Assembly: GCF_037889915.1 (NCBI RefSeq)
Contig: NZ_JBBKZV010000010.1
Coordinates: 15,387 to 39,386 of the forward strand
DNA length: 24,000 bases
Reading direction: 5' to 3'
Source of the DNA: Variovorax humicola
GTDB taxonomy: Bacteria > Pseudomonadota > Gammaproteobacteria > Burkholderiales > Burkholderiaceae_C
Part shown: positions 2,832-21,793 of the stretch, piece by piece
How positions within the stretch are numbered: the first letter of the stretch is position 1
Layout: each line of letters opens with the position of its first letter
Program-made: the position numbers and the translations under genes
Notes under the pieces: model-generated
What the model was told of the DNA's origin: nothing
Seen by the model: only the letters and a program-made list of their open reading frames with translations
The model's database searches: none

Positions 2832-5228
2832 ATGTCGACTCAAGGTGTCGGGGCACGGGTACTTCGCAAGGAAGACGACCGCCTGCTACGGGGGCGTGGC
2901 CAGTTCGTGGCGGACATACGCATGGCAGGCATGCTGGACGTTGCCTTTGTCCGCAGCCCACTCGCTCACGCGCGGATCGTCGGCATCGACATACCGCCTG
3001 CGTGCCGGGACGGCGTCTACACCGTGCAGGATCTAGGTTCGGTCAGGCCGATCCGGTCGGTGTCAGGCTTGCCTGGCTTCAAGATTTCCGAGCAGCCGAT
3101 CCTCGCGCAGGGCAAGGTGCGCCACGTCGGCGAGACGGTTGCCATGTGCGTGGCGCCGACGCGTGCCGAAGCCGAGGACATCGCGGCCGCCGTCCGGCTC
3201 GACCTGGAGGAACTGCCGGCGGTGCACGACATGCTCGAGGCCCGCCGCGACGTTTCCACGCGCCTGCACGAAGAGTGGCCCGACAACGTCTTCCTGGAGA
3301 CCCGCGTCAACGTCGACATCGACCGGGTGAGCGATGCGCCGATCAAGGTCAAGCGCGTGATCCGCACGTCGCGGCAGTCCATGGCGCCGATGGAAGGGCG
3401 CGGCGTCGTGGCCCACTGGGATACGCGCCTGGAGCAACTCGTCGTCTACACCGCGACGCAGATGCCGCACATCGTGCGCACAGGGCTCTCCGAATGCCTG
3501 GGCCTCGACGAAGGCCAGGTGCGGGTCATCGCACCGGACGTCGGCGGCGGCTTCGGCTACAAGGGCATCCTGCTCACCGAGGAAGTCGCGGTCAGCTGGC
3601 TGGCGATGCGGCTCGGGCGCCCGGTGCGCTGGATCGAGGACCGTCGCGAACACCTGACCGGCGGCGCCAACTGCCGCGAGCACCACTACGTGATCACCGG
3701 CTACGCCGACAGTACGGGCCGCTTGCTGGGTATCGACTGCGAGGCGACCGTCGACTCGGGCGCGTATTCGTCGTATCCGTTCTCGGCCTGCCTGGAGGCT
3801 GCGCAGGTCGCGAGCATCCTGCCGGGGCCGTACGACTTTCCGGGCTATCGCTGCGTGACGCATTCCGTCGCCACCAACAAATGCCCGATCCTGCCCTACC
3901 GAGGCGTCGCGCGCACCGGCGTGTGCTTCGCGCTGGAGTTGCTGCTCGATGATCTGGCGCATGCGGCCGGCATCGAGCCGCACGAGCTGCGCATGAAAAG
4001 CCTGGTGCGTCCGGAGCAGATGCCGTTCGACAACATCACGAAGAAGCACTTCGACAGCGGCGACTATCCCGAGGCGCTGCGCCAGGCGGTGGAGGCGATC
4101 GACCTTCCCGCCATCCGTGCGCGCCAGAAGCGCGGCGAGGCCGATGGCCGCCTGATCGGCGTCGGGGTGTCGATCTATTGCGAGCAGGCGGCGCACGGCA
4201 CGTCGGTGTACGCGGGCTGGGGCATTCCGATGGTGCCTGGCTACGAGCAGGCGACGGCGCGCCTGACGCCCGACGGCGGGCTCGAGCTGCGCATCGGCGC
4301 GCACTCGCACGGCCAAAGCCTCGAAACCACGTTGGCGCAGGTGGCCAACGAGATCCTCGGCATCGACGTGTCCAAGGTCAAGCTGATCCATGGCGACACC
4401 GCGTTCACCCCGTATTCGACCGGCACCTGGGGCTCGCGCTGCATGGTGATGTCGGGCGGCGCGGTCTCGCGTGCCTGCCAGCAGTTGTCGGCCCGCCTGT
4501 CGGTCATCGGCGCATGGATGCTCGAGACGCAGGCGGACCAGGTCGTGTTGCGCGATGGCAGGTTGACCGGTCCCTCCGGCAGCCTTTCGATCGGCGAGAT
4601 CGCCCGGACCTGGTACCGGCGGCCGCAGGACCTGCCCGCGGGGGTCAATCCCGGCGGGCTGGAGGTGACCGAGGGCTACAAGCCGCAGCGGGACTCCGGT
4701 ACCTTCGGCTATGGCGCGCACGCGGTGGTCGTGGCGATCGACCGCGAGACGGGCGACGTCGAGATCCTCGACTACGTGATCGTCGAGGACGGCGGCAAGC
4801 TGGTCAATCCGATGGTCGTGGACGGCCAGATCTACGGCGGGACCGCGCAAGGCATCGGCACCGCGCTCTACGAGGAGATGGCCTTCGACGCATCCGGCCA
4901 GCCGCAGGCATCGACCTTTGCCGACTACCTGCTGCCCGGCCCGACCGAGGTGCCCGAGCCGAGGTTGATCCACATGGAAACCGTTTCGCCCTACACCGAG
5001 TTCGGCGTCAAGGGTGTCGGGGAGAGCGGCGCGATCCCGCCGCCCGCCGCGATCTGCAATGCCGTCAACGACGCACTGCGTCCGCTCGGTGCGTCGCTGT
5101 ACGTCTCGCCCGTCACGCCGCGCCGCGTGCTGGAAGCCATCGCCGAGGCACAGGACGCCGCCGCGGCAGCGATTGCGGCATCGACGGCATCGACGGCAAT
5201 GCGCGACAGCGCGAAGGTGGCGCCATGA
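2832..5228 (+). CDS. Molybdopterin-binding large subunit of a xanthine dehydrogenase / aldehyde oxidase / CoxL-like hydroxylase
   Basis: MSTQGVGARVLRKEDDRLLRGRGQFVAD is the classic N-terminus of this family. The ATG at 2832 is preceded by GAGAGGAG (2816-2823); the track ORF start at 2733 adds a poor R/P-rich extension. The C-terminal GVKGVGESGAIPPPAAI motif is typical. The active-site loop reads PYRGVAR (3894-3914), not the form-I CODH VAYRCSFR. Confidence 0.9.
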   Translation: MSTQGVGARVLRKEDDRLLRGRGQFVADIRMAGMLDVAFVRSPLAHARIVGIDIPPACRDGVYTVQDLGSVRPIRSVSGLPGFKISEQPILAQGKVRHVGETVAMCVAPTRAEAEDIAAAVRLDLEELPAVHDMLEARRDVSTRLHEEWPDNVFLETRVNVDIDRVSDAPIKVKRVIRTSRQSMAPMEGRGVVAHWDTRLEQLVVYTATQMPHIVRTGLSECLGLDEGQVRVIAPDVGGGFGYKGILLTEEVAVSWLAMRLGRPVRWIEDRREHLTGGANCREHHYVITGYADSTGRLLGIDCEATVDSGAYSSYPFSACLEAAQVASILPGPYDFPGYRCVTHSVATNKCPILPYRGVARTGVCFALELLLDDLAHAAGIEPHELRMKSLVRPEQMPFDNITKKHFDSGDYPEALRQAVEAIDLPAIRARQKRGEADGRLIGVGVSIYCEQAAHGTSVYAGWGIPMVPGYEQATARLTPDGGLELRIGAHSHGQSLETTLAQVANEILGIDVSKVKLIHGDTAFTPYSTGTWGSRCMVMSGGAVSRACQQLSARLSVIGAWMLETQADQVVLRDGRLTGPSGSLSIGEIARTWYRRPQDLPAGVNPGGLEVTEGYKPQRDSGTFGYGAHAVVVAIDRETGDVEILDYVIVEDGGKLVNPMVVDGQIYGGTAQGIGTALYEEMAFDASGQPQASTFADYLLPGPTEVPEPRLIHMETVSPYTEFGVKGVGESGAIPPPAAICNAVNDALRPLGASLYVSPVTPRRVLEAIAEAQDAAAAAIAASTASTAMRDSAKVAP

Positions 5229-11628: not shown

Positions 11629-12942
11629 ATGCCAGTGAAGCAACCGGGGCCCGACGACCTGTCGGCCATCGAGAAGGCCAGCCGCGACGAGATTGCCGCG
11701 CTGCAATTGGCGCGCATGAAGTCGACGTTGCAGCGGGCGTACGACAACGTGCCGCACTACCGCAAGACCTTCGATGCCAAGGGTGTGAAGCCGGGCGACC
11801 TGAAGCAGCTCGGCGACCTCTCGAAGTTTCCGTTCCTGGTCAAGTCCGACCTGCGCGACAACTACCCGTTCGGCCTCTTCGCCGTGCCGCGCGAACAGCT
11901 CGCGCGCGTGCATGCATCGTCCGGCACGACCGGCAAGCCGACTGTGGTCGGCTACACGAAAAACGACATCGACACATGGGCCGAGCTCGTCGCGCGATCG
12001 ATTCGCGCCGCAGGCGGCCGACCGGGCGACATGATCCACATCGCCTATGGCTATGGCCTGTTCACCGGCGGACTGGGCGCCCACTACGGTGCCGAACGCG
12101 CGGGCTGCACTGTCATCCCGATGTCGGGCGGGCAGACCGAGAAGCAGGTGCAGTTGATCCAGGACTTCAAGCCGTCCATCATCATGGTCACGCCCAGCTA
12201 CATGCAGGTGATCATCGAGGAGTTCACGCGCCAGGGCCTCGATGCGCGCGCGAGCTCGCTGAAGGTGGGCATCTTCGGCGCGGAGCCGTGGACCGAAGCG
12301 ATGCGCCACGACATCGAGCACAAGGCCGGCATCGATGCGGTCGACATCTACGGCCTCTCGGAAGTGATGGGCCCCGGCGTGGCCAGCGAATGCATCGAGA
12401 GCAAGGACGGCCCGGTGATCTGGGAAGACCATTTCTATCCCGAGATCATCGACCCCGACACCGGTGAACTGGTGCCCGACGGCGAGGAGGGCGAACTCGT
12501 CTTCACCTCGCTGACCAAGGAAGCATTCCCCGTCATCCGCTATCGCACGCGCGATCTCACGCGGCTGCTGCCGCCGACCTCGCGCTCGTTCCGCCGCATG
12601 GGCAAGATCGTCGGTCGCAGCGACGACATGATGATCATCCGTGGCGTCAACGTCTTTCCGACACAGGTCGAGGAGATCGTGCTCGCGCATGAGAAGCTCA
12701 CCGGCGTCTACCAGATGCACATCAGCCGCGAGGGGCTGCTCGACCAGGTCGAGGTGCATTGCGAACTGCAGCCCGGCAGCCACGTCAGTGAAAGCGACCG
12801 CAACGCGGTGGCGACGTGGGTGCAGCATCGCATCAAGACGCTGGTCGGCATCTCGACCGAAGTCCGGGTGTTCGACCCGAACACCATCGAACGCACGCAG
12901 ACCGGCAAGGCCCGCCGCGTGGTCGACAAACGCCCGCGCTGA
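11629..12942 (+). CDS. paaK: Phenylacetate-CoA ligase PaaK
   Basis: The 437-aa length and the motifs SSGTTGKPTVVGYT, YGLSEVMGPGV and IRYRTRDL are characteristic of PaaK. GAGGAGA (11619-11625) precedes the ATG. Confidence 0.93.
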   Translation: MPVKQPGPDDLSAIEKASRDEIAALQLARMKSTLQRAYDNVPHYRKTFDAKGVKPGDLKQLGDLSKFPFLVKSDLRDNYPFGLFAVPREQLARVHASSGTTGKPTVVGYTKNDIDTWAELVARSIRAAGGRPGDMIHIAYGYGLFTGGLGAHYGAERAGCTVIPMSGGQTEKQVQLIQDFKPSIIMVTPSYMQVIIEEFTRQGLDARASSLKVGIFGAEPWTEAMRHDIEHKAGIDAVDIYGLSEVMGPGVASECIESKDGPVIWEDHFYPEIIDPDTGELVPDGEEGELVFTSLTKEAFPVIRYRTRDLTRLLPPTSRSFRRMGKIVGRSDDMMIIRGVNVFPTQVEEIVLAHEKLTGVYQMHISREGLLDQVEVHCELQPGSHVSESDRNAVATWVQHRIKTLVGISTEVRVFDPNTIERTQTGKARRVVDKRPR

Positions 12943-12983
12943 GCGCTGCGCATTCATCCTCCGAGCGACGAACAAACCATTCC

Positions 12984-15431
12984 ATGCTGAAGAAACTTTC
13001 TCTCCTTTGCACAGCCCTTGCGCTGGCCGGCTGCGCCGCTACGACGGCTACCTCGACCGGAACGGCCACGATCAAGCGAGACACCTACGGCGTTCCGCAT
13101 GTCTACGCGAACGATGTGCGTGGCCTGTTCCACGGCTACGGCTATGTCGTGGCCGAAGACCGCCTCTTCCAGATGGAAATGGCGCGCCGCGCCGTGCTCG
13201 GGACCGTCTCGGAAGTCATGGGTCCGAACTATGTGGCGCTCGACAAGGGGAGCCGGTCGGCCTTCACGCCCGATTCCATCAAGGCGCAGATGGCCAGGTT
13301 GCCGCCCGATGAAAAGGCCATCTTCGACGGTTATGCAGCAGGCTTCAATGCACGCGTGAAAGAGGTGCTGGCTGCCAAGGGCACCCTGATGCCGAAGCAG
13401 TTCATCGACGCCGCCTTCGAGCCGAAGGCCGACTGGACCGGCTACGACGTTGCGATGATCTGGGTCGGCACCATGGCCAACCGCTACTCGAATGCGAGCA
13501 GCGAAATCGCCAACCTCCGTCTGCTGAATCAACTCCAGAAGGCGAAGGGCGATGCGCTCGGCCGCGAACTCTTCGACCAGATCCGCTGGATCGAGGATCC
13601 GCTTGCGCCGACCACGGTCCCGCGCAGCGGCGGGCAGAGGCAGGCCGCCGCGCTGCCGGCGAATGGTTCAGCGAAGGGTGACGATCCGTTGGCCCGCCTG
13701 GTGCCGGTCTCGCCAGAACTGCTGGCCTCCCGCAGCGACGTCGATGCGGCGTCGCGCGGTGTCGCGGAGCCGTGGCAGCGACCCATCGCAAGCAACCTCT
13801 GGATCACCGGGCCGAAAAAGACCAGCGACGGCAGCACGGTGCTCATCAACGGGCCGCAATTCAACTGGTTCAATCCGTCGTATGTGTTCGCCGTCGGGCT
13901 GCACGGCGCTGGCTACGACGTGACGGGCAACACGCCCTTCGCGCATCCGGTAATCCTGTTCGGCACCAACGGAAAGATCGCCTGGGGTGCGACTGCGGGC
14001 CCGCTGGATGTCAACGACATGTACCAGGAGAAGCTCAACGCGTCGAACCGCTACGAGTACCTCTTCAACGGTGCCATGCGGCCGATGGGCAAGCGCACGG
14101 AGATCATCAAGGTCAAGGGCCAGGCCGATCAGAGCCTGGATGTCTACTCGACAGTGCATGGCATCGTCACGGACTTCGATCTTCCGAACAACACCGCCTT
14201 CTCGATGAAGCGGAGCTGGGACGGCCATGAGCTCGAATCGCTGCTCGGCTGGATCCATTCCATGCAGGCAAAGAACTGGGACCAGTGGCTGGCGCAGGCT
14301 TCGCGAGTCGCGATCACCATCAACTGGTACTACGCGGACGCCGACGGAAACATCGGTTACGTCTCGCCCGGTCGACTGCCGATCCGCCCCGCCTCGCAGG
14401 ACGTTCGCCTGCCGGCGATCGGCGACGGCTCGATGGAGTGGCAGGGCATTCGTCCCTTCAAGGAAGACCCGCAGGTGTTCAATCCCGCGCAGGGCTACAT
14501 CGCCAACTGGAACAACCAGTCCGCGCCAGGCGCGGTCAGCGATGGCGGCAACTACGCGGCGGCAGACCGGGTCAATGAATTCATCACGCGCCTCGAAGCC
14601 AAGCCGCGCCTGACGCGCGATGAGCTTTGGGCCATCAACCGCAGCACGGCCTACGCGGACACCAACGCGCGCTATTTCGTCCCGTTCATCGTGGAGGCCA
14701 CGCGCGGTTTGCCAGCCACGGATCCGGCGCATCGCGCTGCGCAGATCCTTGCCGCGTGGAACATGGAGAACGACGACCCGACCGAGCAAGGTGCCTACCA
14801 GAGCCCGGCCACGACGATCATGATGGCGTGGCTGCCGATCATCTACAAGCAATTGCTGGCCGACGATCTGCCGCCCGAAGTGTTCGCGGCCTATTCGAAC
14901 GGAGGCTACGCGGGCGCGACGCAAGTCGCCAGCATCCGGCCGGGTAATGGCTCCAAGCTGCTCTACAACGCATTGCTCGGCCCCAAGGCCGGGGTGCCGC
15001 AGCGCTACGACTTCTTCAATGGCGCCGACAAGAACGCGATGATCCGCAGCACTCTCGCACAGGCCGTGTCCGAGTTGACGGCGCAGTACGGCAGCGATAC
15101 GGCCCGGTGGCGCACGCCGGTCACCAGGCACGTGTTCCTCACCAGCAACTTCATCGGAGCGCCGCAGGCCAACGCCGACGAATTGCTGACGCTGCCGAGC
15201 TACATGAACCGCGGTTCGCAGAACGACAAGGTGGTGTTCTCGGCCGGCAGCGTTTCCATGTGCACGGCGGCACCGCCCGGACAGAGCGGCTTCGTTGCGC
15301 CAGACGGCCGCAAGGCGGCGCACTATAGCGACCAGATGGCGCTCTTCAAGGACTTCGGCTGCAAGAGCGAGTCGCTGACGCCGGCCGAGGTGGACCGGAA
15401 TCTCGAATCGACCAAGCAGTTGGCGTATTGA
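12984..15431 (+). CDS. pac: Penicillin G acylase (Ntn-hydrolase, EC 3.5.1.11-type) precursor with a lipoprotein signal peptide
   Basis: Long stretches match my memory of E. coli PGA. Alpha chain: [34 protein letters not shown] and [15 protein letters not shown]. The beta chain starts at [10 protein letters not shown]...[34 protein letters not shown], with the catalytic Ser codon at 13791-13793. Further matches are [23 protein letters not shown] and [13 protein letters not shown]. The N-terminus [17 protein letters not shown] has a lipobox (LAGC, Cys17). Confidence 0.92.
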
Positions 15432-15451: not shown

Positions 15452-16462
15452 ATGTACACGCAAGCCATGGACACGATGGGCAAGGAGCCCGGCGACGGCA
15501 AGAAGGCGGTTCGCTCCGCCGAGGAAATGCAGTTCGAGGAACGCTTCGACGCGCACATCGACGCCGGCGATTTCATCGAGGCGAAGGACTGGATGCCCGA
15601 CCACTACCGCAAGACGCTGGTGCGGCAGATCAGCCAGCATGCGCATTCGGAAATCGTCGGCATGCTGCCGGAGGGCAACTGGATCAGCCGCGCGCCCACG
15701 TTGAAGCGCAAGGCCATCCTGCTGGCCAAGGTGCAGGACGAGGGCGGCCACGGCCTCTATCTCTACGCGGCGGCCGAAACGCTCGGCACCTCGCGCGACC
15801 AGATGTTCGATGCGCTGCACAGCGGCAAGGCCAAGTACAGCTCGATCTTCAACTACCCGACGCTGACCTGGGCCGACATCGGCACCATCGGCTGGCTGGT
15901 CGACGGCGCGGCAATCATGAACCAGGTGCCGATCTGCCGCTGCTCTTATGCGCCGTATGCGCGCGCCATGATCCGCATCTGCCGCGAAGAGAGTTTCCAT
16001 CAGCGCCAGGGCTACGAAGCCCTGCTCACGATGATGACCAAGGGCACAGCCGCGCAGAAGGCGATGGTGCAGGACGCGGTCAATCGCTGGTGGTGGCCGT
16101 CGATCATGATGTTCGGCCCGCCGGACGACCAGTCGCCCAACAGCGCGCAGTCAATGCGTTGGGGCATCAAGCGTTTCAGCAACGACGAACTGCGCCAGAA
16201 GTTCATCGACGCGGCGGTGGAGCAGGCGCGCATTCTCGGCGTGACCCTGCCCGACCCGGATCTGAAGTGGAACGAGGAGCGCCAGGCGCACGACCACGGC
16301 GCGATCGACTGGAGTGAATTCTGGCGTGTGATCGGCGGCGATGGGCCGTGCAACCGCGAACGGCTGGCGGCGCGCGTCAAGGCCTGGGAAGACGGCGCAT
16401 GGGTGCGCGAAGCCGCACTCGCACACGCCCGCAAGCAATCAACCTTGAAGGAAGCAGCATGA
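15452..16462 (+). CDS. paaA: 1,2-phenylacetyl-CoA epoxidase catalytic subunit PaaA (di-iron oxygenase)
   Basis: The di-iron ligand regions are [10 protein letters not shown] and [17 protein letters not shown] (15441-15446) lies 5 nt upstream of the ATG at 15452. The TTG at 15428 overlaps the pac stop and is less likely. Confidence 0.93.
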
Positions 16463-16524
16463 TCGACGCACGGCCGCCCGAAGGCGATCGCACCGCAACG
16501 CGTAGCGCGGAGGTTACCCAATGA
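16459..16524 (+). repeat. Copy A of a dispersed 62-bp intergenic element; contains a 21-codon mini-ORF ([21 protein letters not shown]) ATGA-coupled to the paaA stop and the paaB start
   Basis: The ATG at 16459-16461 overlaps the paaA TGA (16460-16462). The mini-ORF TGA (16522-16524) overlaps the paaB ATG (16521). GGAGG lies at 16509-16513. Hand alignment to the copy at 21728 gives 55/62 identical positions. Confidence 0.85.
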
Positions 16525-16811
16525 CTACCGAAAACGAATGGCCCCTGTGGGAAGTTTTCGTCCGCAGCAAGGCGGGCCTGGACCACAAGCATTGCGGCAG
16601 CCTGCATGCCGCCGACTCGAAGATGGCCATCCAGATGGCGCGCGACGTCTACACGCGCCGGCAGGAAGGCTGCAGCGTCTGGGTGGTGCGCTCCGAGCAG
16701 ATCGTGGCAAGCGACCCCGGCGACAAGGACATGTACTTCGACCCGGCCGAAGACAAGGTCTACCGCCACCCGACCTTCTACGTGCTGCCCAAGGCCGTGG
16801 ACCACATGTGA
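16521..16811 (+). CDS. paaB: 1,2-phenylacetyl-CoA epoxidase subunit PaaB
   Basis: The 96-aa product, WPLWEVFVRSKAGLDHKHCGSLHAADSKMAIQMARDVYTRR...DKDMYFDPAEDKVYRHPTFY, is the conserved PaaB signature. Confidence 0.93.
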   Translation: MTTENEWPLWEVFVRSKAGLDHKHCGSLHAADSKMAIQMARDVYTRRQEGCSVWVVRSEQIVASDPGDKDMYFDPAEDKVYRHPTFYVLPKAVDHM

Positions 16812-16821
16812 GCGCGTCGCC

Positions 16822-17595
16822 ATGCAATCGTCCATCGAACTCCAACTGACGCCTTCCGCGCAGTACCTGCTGCGCATCGGCGACACCTGCCTGATCCTCG
16901 CCCAGCGGCTCGGCGAATGGTGCGGCCATGCGCCCATCCTCGAGGAAGACATCGCCATGTCGAACATCGCGCTCGACCTCATCGGCCAGGCGCGGGCCTT
17001 GCTGACGCGGGCCGGTGAAATCGAAGGCCGGCAACACGACGAAGACCAGCTGGCCTTCCTTCGCAACGAGCGCGATTACTTCAACCTGACGATGGTCGAA
17101 CTGCCGCGCGGCGACTTCGCTTTCAGCGTGCTGCGCAACACCATGGTCTCGACCTGGCTCAAGCTGCTGTGGGAACGGCTCGCGAATTCGACCGATCCCG
17201 AGGTCAACGCGATTGCCGGCAAGGCGCTGAAGGAAGCGCGCTATCACCAGCAGCATTCGGGCGATTGGGTGGTGCGCCTGGGCGACGGGACCGACGAGTC
17301 GCGCAATCGCATGAAGGCCGCGCTCGAACAACTGGGGCGCTATGTGGCCGAGATGTTCGACACCGATGCCGTCGACGAACAGGCCCATGAAGCCGGCATG
17401 GGGCCGCTCTGGTCCGAGCTGAAGGCGCCGTGGCAGGCGGAGATGCAACAGATCCTGGACGAAGCCGGCCTCGCGATGCCCGCCGAATCCGCCTTCCGCA
17501 GCGAAGGCAAGCGCGGCATGCACAGCGAGCACATGGGCTTCATCCTGACCGACATGCAGTACCTGCAGCGCAGCTTTCCCGGAGGCGTGTGGTGA
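16822..17595 (+). CDS. paaC: 1,2-phenylacetyl-CoA epoxidase subunit PaaC
   Basis: YLLRIGDTCLILAQRLGEWCGHAPILEEDIAMSNIALDLIGQAR is a ferritin-like PaaC sequence. The gene lies between paaB and paaD. The track ORF start at 16606 overlaps paaB out of frame. Confidence 0.9.
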   Translation: MQSSIELQLTPSAQYLLRIGDTCLILAQRLGEWCGHAPILEEDIAMSNIALDLIGQARALLTRAGEIEGRQHDEDQLAFLRNERDYFNLTMVELPRGDFAFSVLRNTMVSTWLKLLWERLANSTDPEVNAIAGKALKEARYHQQHSGDWVVRLGDGTDESRNRMKAALEQLGRYVAEMFDTDAVDEQAHEAGMGPLWSELKAPWQAEMQQILDEAGLAMPAESAFRSEGKRGMHSEHMGFILTDMQYLQRSFPGGVW

Positions 17596-20640: not shown

Positions 20641-21669
20641 ATGGACGCACAGATCGCCCTGCTGCTTGCGCAGGACGGCCTCGTGAATGGTGCGGTGTAC
20701 GGATTGATGGCGCTGGCCCTGGTGCTGGTCTTTTCCGTCACCCGCGTCATCTTCATTCCGCAAGGCGAATTCGTGGCCTTCGGCGCGCTGTCGATGGCCA
20801 TGATGCAGGCCGGCCGCGTGCCGGCGACGCTGTGGCTGCTGCTGGTGCTCGCCGCGCTGGCGCTGATCGTCGAGGCATGGCGCTGGAAGCGCGGCCTCAC
20901 GGTCGAGTGGACGTCTGCGCTGCTGTGGTGCGTGGCATTCCCGCTGGCCGCCTGCGCGCTCGCATTGGCATGGAAGCCCACTGGCGTCGCGGCGCAAGCC
21001 GTCACGACGCTGGTGCTGATCATGCCGCTCGGGCCGCTGCTCTATCGCCTCGCATTCCGGCCGATGGTCAATGCCACGGTGCTGACGCTGCTGATCGTCT
21101 CTGTCGCGCTGCATGGCGTGCTGGTGGGGCTCGGCTTGCTGTTCTTCGGTGCCGAAGGTTCGCGCACGCCGGCCTTCTCGGACGCACGCTTCGACCTGGC
21201 CGGCCTGCAGGTGACAGGGCAATCGATCGTCGTCATCGGCGTGACCTTCGTGCTGGTGGTGCTGATGTTCCAGTTCTTCGGCCGCTCGATGGTCGGCAAG
21301 GCCTTGCGTGCGACGGCGATGAACCGTGTCGGCGCCCGGCTGATGGGCATTCCGACGGAGTTGGCGGGCGATGTGAGCTTTGCGCTGGCGGCGCTCATCG
21401 GCGCGGTGTCGGGCCTGTTGATCGCGCCACTGACCACGGTCTACTACGACACGGGCTTTCTCATCGGCCTGAAGGGGTTCGTGGCCGCGATCGTTGGTGG
21501 GCTGGGCAGCTATCCGGCGGCCTTGCTCGGCGCGCTGCTGGTCGGGCAACTCGAATCGTTTTCTTCCTTCTGGGCCAGCGCCTTCAAGGAGGTCCTGGTG
21601 TTCACGCTGATCATTCCGGTGCTGTGGTGGCGCTCGCTGCGCAGCCATCATGTGGAGGATGAGGAATGA
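20641..21669 (+). CDS. Branched-chain-amino-acid-type ABC transporter permease (LivH-like)
   Basis: The product is polytopic and hydrophobic, with a LivH-like N-terminus ([18 protein letters not shown]) and C-terminal [17 protein letters not shown]. At 342 aa it is somewhat longer than typical LivH. Confidence 0.88.
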
Positions 21670-21731
21670 ACGCCGCACGGCCGCTTGAAGGCGTTCGCAC
21701 CGTAGCGCGCAGCGCGGAGGTTTTCCAATGA
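21666..21731 (+). repeat. Copy B of the 62-bp element; mini-[28 protein letters not shown]-coupled to the livH-like stop and to copy C
   Basis: The ATG at 21666-21668 overlaps the permease TGA (21667-21669). Its TGA (21729-21731) overlaps the next ATG (21728). It matches copy C at 59/62 positions. Confidence 0.88.
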
Positions 21732-21793
21732 ACGCCGCACGGCCGCCCGAAGGCGTTCGCACCGTAGCGCGTAGCGCGGAGGTTTTCCAATGA
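21728..21793 (+). repeat. Copy C of the 62-bp element; mini-ORF MNAARPPEGVRTVARSAEVFQ, ATGA-coupled to copy B and to the downstream permease/ATPase gene
   Basis: It starts exactly 62 bp after copy B. Its TGA (21791-21793) overlaps the ATG at 21790. GGAGG at 21778-21782 serves as the SD for the 21790 start. Confidence 0.88.

Follow-up and report, generated by a model that had tools for sequence, protein, structure and literature searches.

The genes paaA and paaB of Variovorax humicola are separated, in the 24,000-nucleotide (nt) stretch that we analysed (hereafter the window; contig NZ_JBBKZV010000010.1, positions 15,387 to 39,386, forward strand), by a 62-nt unit with an ATGA at either side. 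We consider it likely that this unit is a copy of a dispersed Burkholderiales repeat of 62 or 65 nt, a short variant of the known repeat BRE, which inserted at the start codon of paaB and would relay translational coupling through a mini-ORF (a 21-codon open reading frame, ORF) and a Shine-Dalgarno (SD) sequence of its own. Judging from the sequence, translation of paaB is probably linked to that of paaA via the unit. The peptide of the mini-ORF is a by-product.

The repeat unit at the paaA-paaB junction

The features of the junction, and of the two sibling copies in the window, are the following.

15453-16462, + strand: paaA, 336 codons (Pfam PaaA_PaaC, E 6.6e-95)
16447-16454, + strand: GAAGGAAG, putative ancestral paaB SD, 4 nt 5' of the mini-ORF ATG
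16459-16520, + strand: repeat unit of 62 nt, short BRE-family element, subfamily A, assigned from core matches in the window and from family copies
16459-16524, + strand: mini-ORF, 21 codons plus stop, linked by ATGA overlaps to the paaA stop (at its own start) and to the paaB start (at its own stop)
16461-16489, + strand: hairpin 1, arms GATCGAC (16461-16467) and GGCGATC (16483-16489), with the conserved 15-nt loop GCACGGCCGCCCGAA (16468-16482)
16498-16508, + strand: hairpin 2, CGC (16499-16501) and GCG (16505-16507), loop GTA, closed by an A-C mismatch
16509-16513, + strand: GGAGG, SD before paaB and part of the element, 7 nt upstream of the ATG
16521-16811, + strand: paaB, 96 codons (Pfam PaaB, E 1.6e-43)
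21666-21727 and 21728-21789, + strand: two tandem sibling units, between the stop of a livH-like permease gene and the start of a livM/livG fusion

The paaA ATG at 15453 has an AGGAG upstream and gives a product with the length of the 336-residue Variovorax PaaA. Its stop (TGA, 16460-16462) lies inside the 5' ATGA of the unit (16459-16462), the paaB ATG at 16521 lies inside the ATGA at the 3' side (16521-16524), and the distance from ATG to ATG is 62 nt; hairpin 2 directly adjoins the SD. An earlier reading of this DNA, made from the letters alone (the sequence-only reading), had described a 62-bp unit with an ATGA at both ends, 21 codons, a GGAGG, this same ATG-to-ATG spacing and 55/62 identity to a second copy, and was exact on every point. 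It had also held that the repeat supplies the SD and start context of paaB, which agrees with the GGAGG at 16509-16513 and the ATGA at 16521; paaB translation would depend on them.

The paa unit is identical at 55/62 positions to the sibling at 21728 and at 52/62 to that at 21666, and the ATGA that starts the livM/livG fusion (21790) directly follows the tandem pair. Differences from the 21728 unit fall at element positions 5, 8, 29, 38, 40, 58 and 59 and produce six amino-acid changes. All seven are non-synonymous, as had been noticed before, but they are not independent, because positions 5 and 29 form one compensated base pair, T-A in the paa copy and A-T in the liv copies. The former statement that the copies occupy unrelated operons is loose: the liv genes lie on the same strand, 240 nt past paaE and within the paa cluster.

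Comparison with related genomes, which the sequence-only reading had recommended in order to find junctions lacking the insert, did reveal them. In ten loci of the V. paradoxus group (L089-L098) and in Variovorax sp. PBL-E5 (L222), a single ATGA joins paaA to paaB and supplies the paaB start codon (...GAAGGAGGCCGCATGAGC... and ...GAAGGAAGCCGCATGACG..., also read as ...GAAGGAGGCCGCATGAGCGCC... and ...GAAGGAAGCCGCATGACGCAG..., respectively). The window junction instead consists of GAAGGAAG-N4-ATGA, the unit of 62 nt, a second ATGA and paaB. As nothing but the ATGA separates the two genes in these other Variovorax, the unit represents an insertion, with a direct repeat of 4 nt. The GAAGGAAG at 16447 is orthologous to the GAAGGAGG or GAAGGAAG found immediately 5' of the paaB ATG at element-free junctions, and a soil metagenome contig (L088) encodes an identical PaaB protein and carries an identical element. 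Beyond the ATGA, we found no within-copy correlation between the two ends past position 4, position 5 being marginal (p = 0.03). The 3' boundary reads TGAGC, the element's own 5' end, in 56% of copies versus 19% of element-free ATGA junctions, a hint that certain targets are preferred.

A non-homologous locus in another genome (L050) carries the first 39 nt (the 5' half) of the paa copy unchanged, rare T-A pair included, and orthologous copies are kept across Rhodoferax species. Together with arrays of mixed composition (L007; see below), this speaks for copying and against a local origin. Readings of the spacer as an intrinsic terminator or attenuator, as ordinary intergenic sequence under conservation or as a chance likeness are refuted by these results and retain next to no probability. 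The short stems of the GC-rich unit, and the TTTT after GGAGG in some copies, would fit such readings, but the 20-nt core has three matches in the window versus 0.08 expected (for the 26-nt 3' module, three versus 0.01), the spacer is absent at orthologous junctions, hundreds of copies occur at unrelated loci among the matches listed, and a terminator and promoter scan found no site within the element.

Other events were observed around paaB. A candidate for a further insert, P0035, was rejected, being a mis-called start at the empty junction of PBL-E5 (L222 401-475); gene calling had lengthened PaaB by 24 residues into paaA, and the true start is the junction ATGA (L222 474-477). The paaB-paaC spacer of this strain (L222 775-885) measures 116 nt and contains CCCCCCTCAAGGGGGC, resembling the central hairpin of the long BRE; in the window, paaC starts at 16823 and the spacer is 11 nt. 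The first paaB codons in Comamonadaceae are a hotspot for different repeats (L099 601-760; L100 601-790; L101 601-730), where L099 has a long BRE, read in frame, in the N-terminal part of PaaB (...GARPPEAAKAPSGGSAAHEVASVG...) and L100 a degenerate BRE-like stretch. V. defluvii, Variovorax sp. WDL1 and several metagenome contigs contain, at the paaB start, a palindromic repeat of the CCCTCCCCTGGTGAGGGGAGGG type, translated as SPSPGEGRVGEGSS, which takes PaaB from about 96-103 to about 125-137 residues.

A repeat family located at start codons

We collected further copies in two scans. A species scan (one genome per species) used 20 bases of the 5' half as its pattern; of the 87 stretches obtained, about three quarters were true copies, and the others were unrelated matches in coding sequence from other phyla. 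For a metagenome scan we fixed hairpin 2 and the SD, in the 3' half, and left the 5' half free, which gave at least 120 stretches. The family counts given hereafter (n = 191, 171, 139 or 128) are of distinct copies among the matches listed in these scans, which together yielded at least about 200 distinct copies, mainly from Comamonadaceae and other Burkholderiales. True copies come almost exclusively from these groups, plus one Zoogloea; the genera from the species scan were Variovorax, Hydrogenophaga, Rhodoferax, Ramlibacter, Hylemonella, Curvibacter, Xenophilus, Xylophilus, Aquabacterium, Albitalea, Aquincola and Zoogloea. Only two matches were found in 2.9 million viral contigs.

Among the matches listed in the metagenome scan, several 5' subfamilies are joined to one common 3' module. 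The 62-nt subfamilies have hairpin 1 arms GAGCGCC...GGCGCTC or GAGCCCC...GGGGCTC, with a further 62-nt type containing ...GGGCCGCTCCCAAGGCGAAT..., and the 65-nt subfamilies are characterized by GAGCCCCC...GGGGGCTC and by GAGCGCCGCGCCGGGCCGCCCCAAGCAAGCTC. The loop core GGCCGCYC..AAG is conserved across subfamilies and in the Bordetella BRE, and nearly all copies keep GGAGG or GAAGG.

Nearly all copies point the same way as their genes. Of 191 copies, 180 begin with NTGA, 161 have an upstream ORF (of 50 codons or more, or running off the contig) that terminates in the 5' TGA, and 156 have a mini-ORF stop in the NTGA or TGATG at the downstream start. Of 171 copies measured from start to start without regard to frame, 142 are 62 or 65 nt long, 146 have a length of 2 mod 3, and 152 have an A after the downstream start. 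The expectation of the sequence-only reading that frame, length, SD and end overlaps would be retained thus holds for about 82-85% of some 190 copies.

Downstream ORFs of at least 50 codons were opened by 132 of the 139 informative terminal units, as compared with 55% of all ATGA sites in the same loci; ATGA occurs about 7,100 times in the loci examined, and copies are nearly confined to start codons. Five flanking pairs taken at random were real operon neighbours, with genes such as metW, livG/livF, dppD/F-like ATPases and tctC paralogues. Upstream genes that do not overlap the element end 2-17 nt ahead of it, and some copies have no upstream gene at all, so that the common denominator is the start codon of the downstream gene. 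An SD-like core was present at -17 to -4 of the 5' ATGA in 54% of copies versus 9% of control positions, as expected if this ATGA was the original start of the downstream gene.

Two kinds of departure were observed in individual loci. In L004, L011, L015, L025, L042, L054 and L065, hairpin 2 is shorter, the SD is GAAGG and the terminal stop is lost, and the frame runs into the downstream gene, which would give an N-terminal MSAARPPEGARTAA... extension (e.g. L011, L054) unless the internal ATG or GTG still serves as the start. Two Variovorax species carry a copy at the same site (L053 7183-7250, L059 2298-2365) without an upstream gene to couple; there the 5' ATGA has decayed to CAGA, and the 3' SD-ATGA and the downstream gene are intact.

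Junctions contain one to three units, and arrays of two or three (L009, L014, L058, L070, L087, L197 and others) are head-to-tail. Some arrays are heterologous, with a type D unit followed by a type A unit (L007, ~4275-4405; L019, ~994-1125), which suggests successive independent insertions at one start codon and not slippage alone. A few arrays (L087 2692-2822, L048 4416-4483, L014 2070-2263) have a 63-nt period with GTGATG or GATCA junctions, not ATGA, and in these, unlike in the 62- and 65-nt classes, one frame is open across all units.

The paa cluster of the window comprises genes for a paaR-like TetR regulator, a paaY-like hexapeptide transferase, a paaG enoyl-CoA hydratase and a paaI thioesterase, along with paaK and paaABCDE. 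A penicillin-amidase-family gene (12816-15431; Pfam E 5.9e-132) stands between paaK and paaA, and a Liv-type ABC transporter that includes a permease-ATPase fusion of 623 residues (LivM/LivG type) comes after paaABCDE. At 765-768 of the window, an ATGA stop/start overlap joins two carboxyltransferase subunit genes without any element; occupancy of such junctions is therefore partial. The V. humicola accessions for PaaK, the substrate-binding protein and the LivM/G fusion, whose sequences the window products match exactly, are MEJ8823808, MEJ8823815 and MEJ8823817, and the gaps between them are exactly filled by the amidase, paaABCDE and livH, consistent with the mini-ORFs being unannotated; paaA and paaB appear to be consecutive in this numbering.

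Hairpins, mini-ORF and the proposed relay

Both stems covary among copies, supporting the view of the sequence-only reading that this is an RNA- or DNA-level element. Pair 5/29 of hairpin 1 is G-C, A-U, C-G or U-A (74 copies), and its arms covary as GAGCGCC/GGCGCTC, GAGCCCC/GGGGCTC, GAGCCCCC/GGGGGCTC and GAGCCGCC/GGCGGCTC, in the scan that had no fixed pattern in that region. In hairpin 2, pair 41/50 is CG in 39 copies, UA in 23 and GC in 2, and pair 42/49 is GC in 42 and CG in 28. Overall, 91.5% of the alignment cells are paired, versus 82.9% after shuffling, and both sides have changed in 68 cells, versus 21.8 in shuffles, a value reached by none of 500 shuffles; slid registers gave only 24-52% pairing. 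An inner hairpin proposed by RNAalifold was rejected, having been built solely from columns fixed by the search pattern; the outer stem covaries in the independent scan. The covarying stems and the conserved loop core are nucleic-acid-level features.

The peptide behaved differently. In 128 distinct canonical copies, entropies at codon positions 1, 2 and 3 were 0.64/0.79/0.57, 0.81/0.80/0.81 and 0.46/0.48/0.52 for the three size classes, with 46/46, 30/30 and 49/52 distinct peptides among distinct copies. Because variation is equal at all three codon positions and the peptides are nearly all different, the peptide is not under selection, as the sequence-only reading had surmised. That the 21-codon frame is a true leader or regulatory micropeptide gene, conserved for its product, is accordingly very improbable: it does have an ATG, an upstream SD and a stop, and the stretch ARPPEG.RTA recurs in many copies, but stem covariation itself alters residues (VRST, ARSA, ARQG), N-terminal halves differ between subfamilies, 17% of the copies run past 24 codons, some of them fused to the downstream gene, and multiple tandem copies occur.

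The structural evidence also bears on a host-selected regulatory RNA, in which hairpins and loop would serve as an mRNA stabiliser, a processing site or a protein-binding site that adjusts the PaaB:PaaA ratio, with tuning by copy number. Covarying stems on the sense strand of the operon mRNA, the loop core kept as far as the Bordetella BRE, co-orientation with transcription, one to three copies per junction and the transcription of Bordetella BRE regions as small RNAs (PMC3110155) all speak for such a role. Yet at one and the same junction some Variovorax species have the unit and others lack it, without any indication that it is required, the same cassette occurs in functionally unrelated operons, folding stability is not above that of shuffles, and Rfam gave no match at the gathering score over the window and noise alone at E up to 10 over 16380-16600. 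We regard this role as unlikely; it is compatible with the insertion and relay proposed here, not exclusive of them.

Alternatively, the element could be the remnant of a DNA-level hairpin transposon (of the REP/RAYT or IS200/IS605 palindrome-associated type) that inserts beside ATGA, its translation features being a residue of selection. Two subterminal hairpins, the lack of terminal inverted repeats, strict orientation, a tetranucleotide shared by the left flank and the right end, A-C mismatches as common as G-U, as expected for pairing in DNA, and identical variants at unrelated loci would fit. The fixed-spacing SD, the start codon and the 2 mod 3 length are nevertheless features of the element in every subfamily and not of its flanks, copies are nearly confined to start codons despite the abundance of ATGA, and no associated transposase was seen in a search that covered the loci rather than whole genomes. 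We therefore give this origin a low probability.

The favoured explanation, an inserted repeat that relays coupling, would operate as follows. Ribosomes ending paaA at the UGA 16460-16462 would re-initiate at the overlapping AUG 16459, assisted by the old paaB SD GAAGGAAG, read the 21-codon mini-ORF through both hairpins, unfolding them, and stop at the UGA 16522-16524 that overlaps the paaB AUG, where restart would be aided by the element's GGAGG 7 nt upstream. The coupling of paaA to paaB would in this way be relayed by the element and not broken. The same termination-reinitiation logic is reviewed in PMC12548453. Copies would survive where the relay geometry holds, that is, where the length is 2 mod 3, both ends are NTGA and an SD is present. 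The stems and loop core are most likely recognised by the copying machinery, and the loop core is the best candidate recognition site because it is conserved across subfamilies and in the Bordetella BRE.

Several observations weigh against this explanation. The abundance of frame-breaking copies that the sequence-only reading had named as a refutation was not seen, yet 33 of 191 copies (17%) run past 24 codons, some as in-frame fusions to the downstream gene, and about 15% have a length that is not 2 mod 3; relay geometry is therefore favoured, not obligatory. The mod-3 count, moreover, overstates the number of independent events, because size classes are inherited within subfamilies. Predicted folding was no stabler than that of shuffles on either strand (z from +1.5 to -0.6), so that folding energies do not back the structure; its support is the covariation. 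Mismatches of the G-U and A-C kinds are near-equal in number (17 versus 14) and do not distinguish stems in this-strand RNA from stems in DNA. We infer mini-ORF translation, and the dependence of paaB on it, from the nucleotide sequence. No transposase or mobilising gene was identified, and none of the annotated window genes has a transposase domain. Finally, copies may be found mostly at start codons because insertions there are harmless and survive, and not because these sites are targeted.

A stronger version, possible but doubtful in our opinion, is that the short BRE forms are an active start-codon-homing element, with an enzyme that places the cassette onto SD-ATGA(GC) starts and a copy number that acts as a heritable dial. 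Such an enzyme would recognise the hairpin-loop core GGCCGCYC..AAG and deliver a cassette of mini-ORF, SD and ATGA. If true, one, two or three units at a junction would set the ratio of downstream to upstream protein, and the element would parallel the synthetic bicistronic-design cassettes while being natural and spreading by itself.

Known relatives and significance

The sequence-only reading described the element accurately and did not name its known relatives, BRE and the mycobacterial MIRU. BREs (Hot et al. 2011, PMC3110155) are chromosomal repeats of 75-91 bp with T-rich ends and a central GCCCCCTCGGGGGGC hairpin, without an assigned function, found in Betaproteobacteria (Alcaligenaceae, Comamonadaceae, Rhodocyclaceae) with up to 29 copies in Polaromonas JS666. 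They lie in intergenic regions of any gene orientation, some copies overlapping ORF ends by a few bases, and membership is set at more than 70% identity to the consensus over about 40-90 bp (PMC3110155). The family described here resembles BRE in a host range of Alcaligenaceae together with Comamonadaceae, within the Betaproteobacteria, in its tandem arrays of variable number and in copies that touch ORF ends.

Sequence likeness to BRE is concentrated in the terminal modules. The type A 5' module matched the long BRE of L099 at 26/28 positions (score 41 versus 15.8 ± 2.8 for shuffled sequences), type C matched the Bordetella BRE with a score of 30 (versus 14.5 ± 2.5), and the window copy did so with a score of 21 (p = 0.018); in L063, a short type C unit and a long BRE have a module of about 30 nt in common. 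Subfamily B gave no significant match to BRE, the central third of which is absent from the short units, and the central hairpin motif GCCCCCTCGGGGGGC had no match in the window even with three mismatches. Unlike BRE, the short unit of 62 nt has ATGA ends and not T tracts, lacks the central hairpin and has a GGAGG-N7-ATGA tail, and its mini-ORF, SD and double-ATGA coupling geometry are unmentioned in PMC3110155. By its terminal modules the element appears to belong with the BRE family, as a short variant lacking the central third. Our literature search found no work on BRE after 2011 and no paper matching the literal core sequence.

The closest architecture is that of the mycobacterial interspersed repetitive units (MIRU; Supply et al. 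1997, as summarised in PMC12548453 and PMC3184786). MIRUs insert at start codons and carry an internal ORF coupled to the gene at -4 spacing (PMC12548453), with tetranucleotide direct repeats at filled sites and ORFs overlapping the neighbouring genes (PMC3184786). Both families consist of units of 40-100 nt located in operons and co-oriented with the genes, with a small ORF overlapping the flanking stop and start at -4, filled and empty sites with a tetranucleotide repeat, variable tandem arrays and GC-rich internal inverted repeats; the operon location with co-orientation, the overlapping small ORF and the empty versus filled sites that characterize MIRU-type elements were all found here. 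MIRUs, however, belong to Actinobacteria, a different phylum, and there is no known relationship, and no claim of membership, by sequence; the present family also differs in its strong canonical GGAGG, at a fixed distance, and in its size classes of 62 and 65 nt. The resemblance is a convergence of architecture.

Other repeats are more distant. The REP/BIME of enterobacteria (Higgins 1982 and Stern 1988, as cited in PMC3184786) are likewise GC-rich repeated stem-loops between operon genes, able to alter the relative expression of the cistrons on either side. REPs are untranslated, occur in both orientations and as inverted pairs, protect mRNA 3' ends and are tied to RAYT transposases, whereas the present element is oriented, forms head-to-tail arrays, carries an SD with start and stop codons and is predicted to be read by ribosomes. 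Its copies are direct and co-oriented with the gene, in contrast to the two orientations, inverted pairs and lack of translation that define REP/REPIN. Nor is it a MITE, its consensus 5' end ATGAGCGCC and 3' end TTTTCCAATGA not being complementary. Synthetic bicistronic-design cassettes (reviewed in ref 78 of PMC12548453) use a short leader ORF with its own SD, whose stop overlaps the gene start and in which the gene SD is embedded, and translating ribosomes unfold structure to reach the downstream start; these are engineered, neither natural nor repeated, and the likeness is of mechanism only. In the Rickettsia palindromic elements and other repeats with in-frame fusions to genes (PMC3184786) we find a parallel to the minority of copies that continue in frame into the downstream gene. 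The Rickettsia elements lie inside coding sequences and are translated within the protein, whereas a separate mini-cistron is the default here.

Translational coupling through ATGA overlaps is among the commonest bacterial ways of fixing subunit ratios. Whereas an insertion at such a junction would normally break coupling, this family would carry a relay cistron instead, and would be the second independent repeat lineage, after the mycobacterial MIRUs, with this solution. It is abundant in soil and freshwater Comamonadaceae, where it sits in catabolic and transporter operons and is missed by annotation; gene callers at times fuse inserts or upstream sequence onto the downstream protein. The element is most likely a short, translation-relaying variant of a known, little-studied repeat, convergent with MIRU, and it provides a function-level hypothesis for BRE, which was reported in 2011 without a function. 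The copies constitute a large natural library of coupling cassettes of about 60 nt, with varied hairpins and spacers, that may serve in studies of re-initiation or as genotyping markers.

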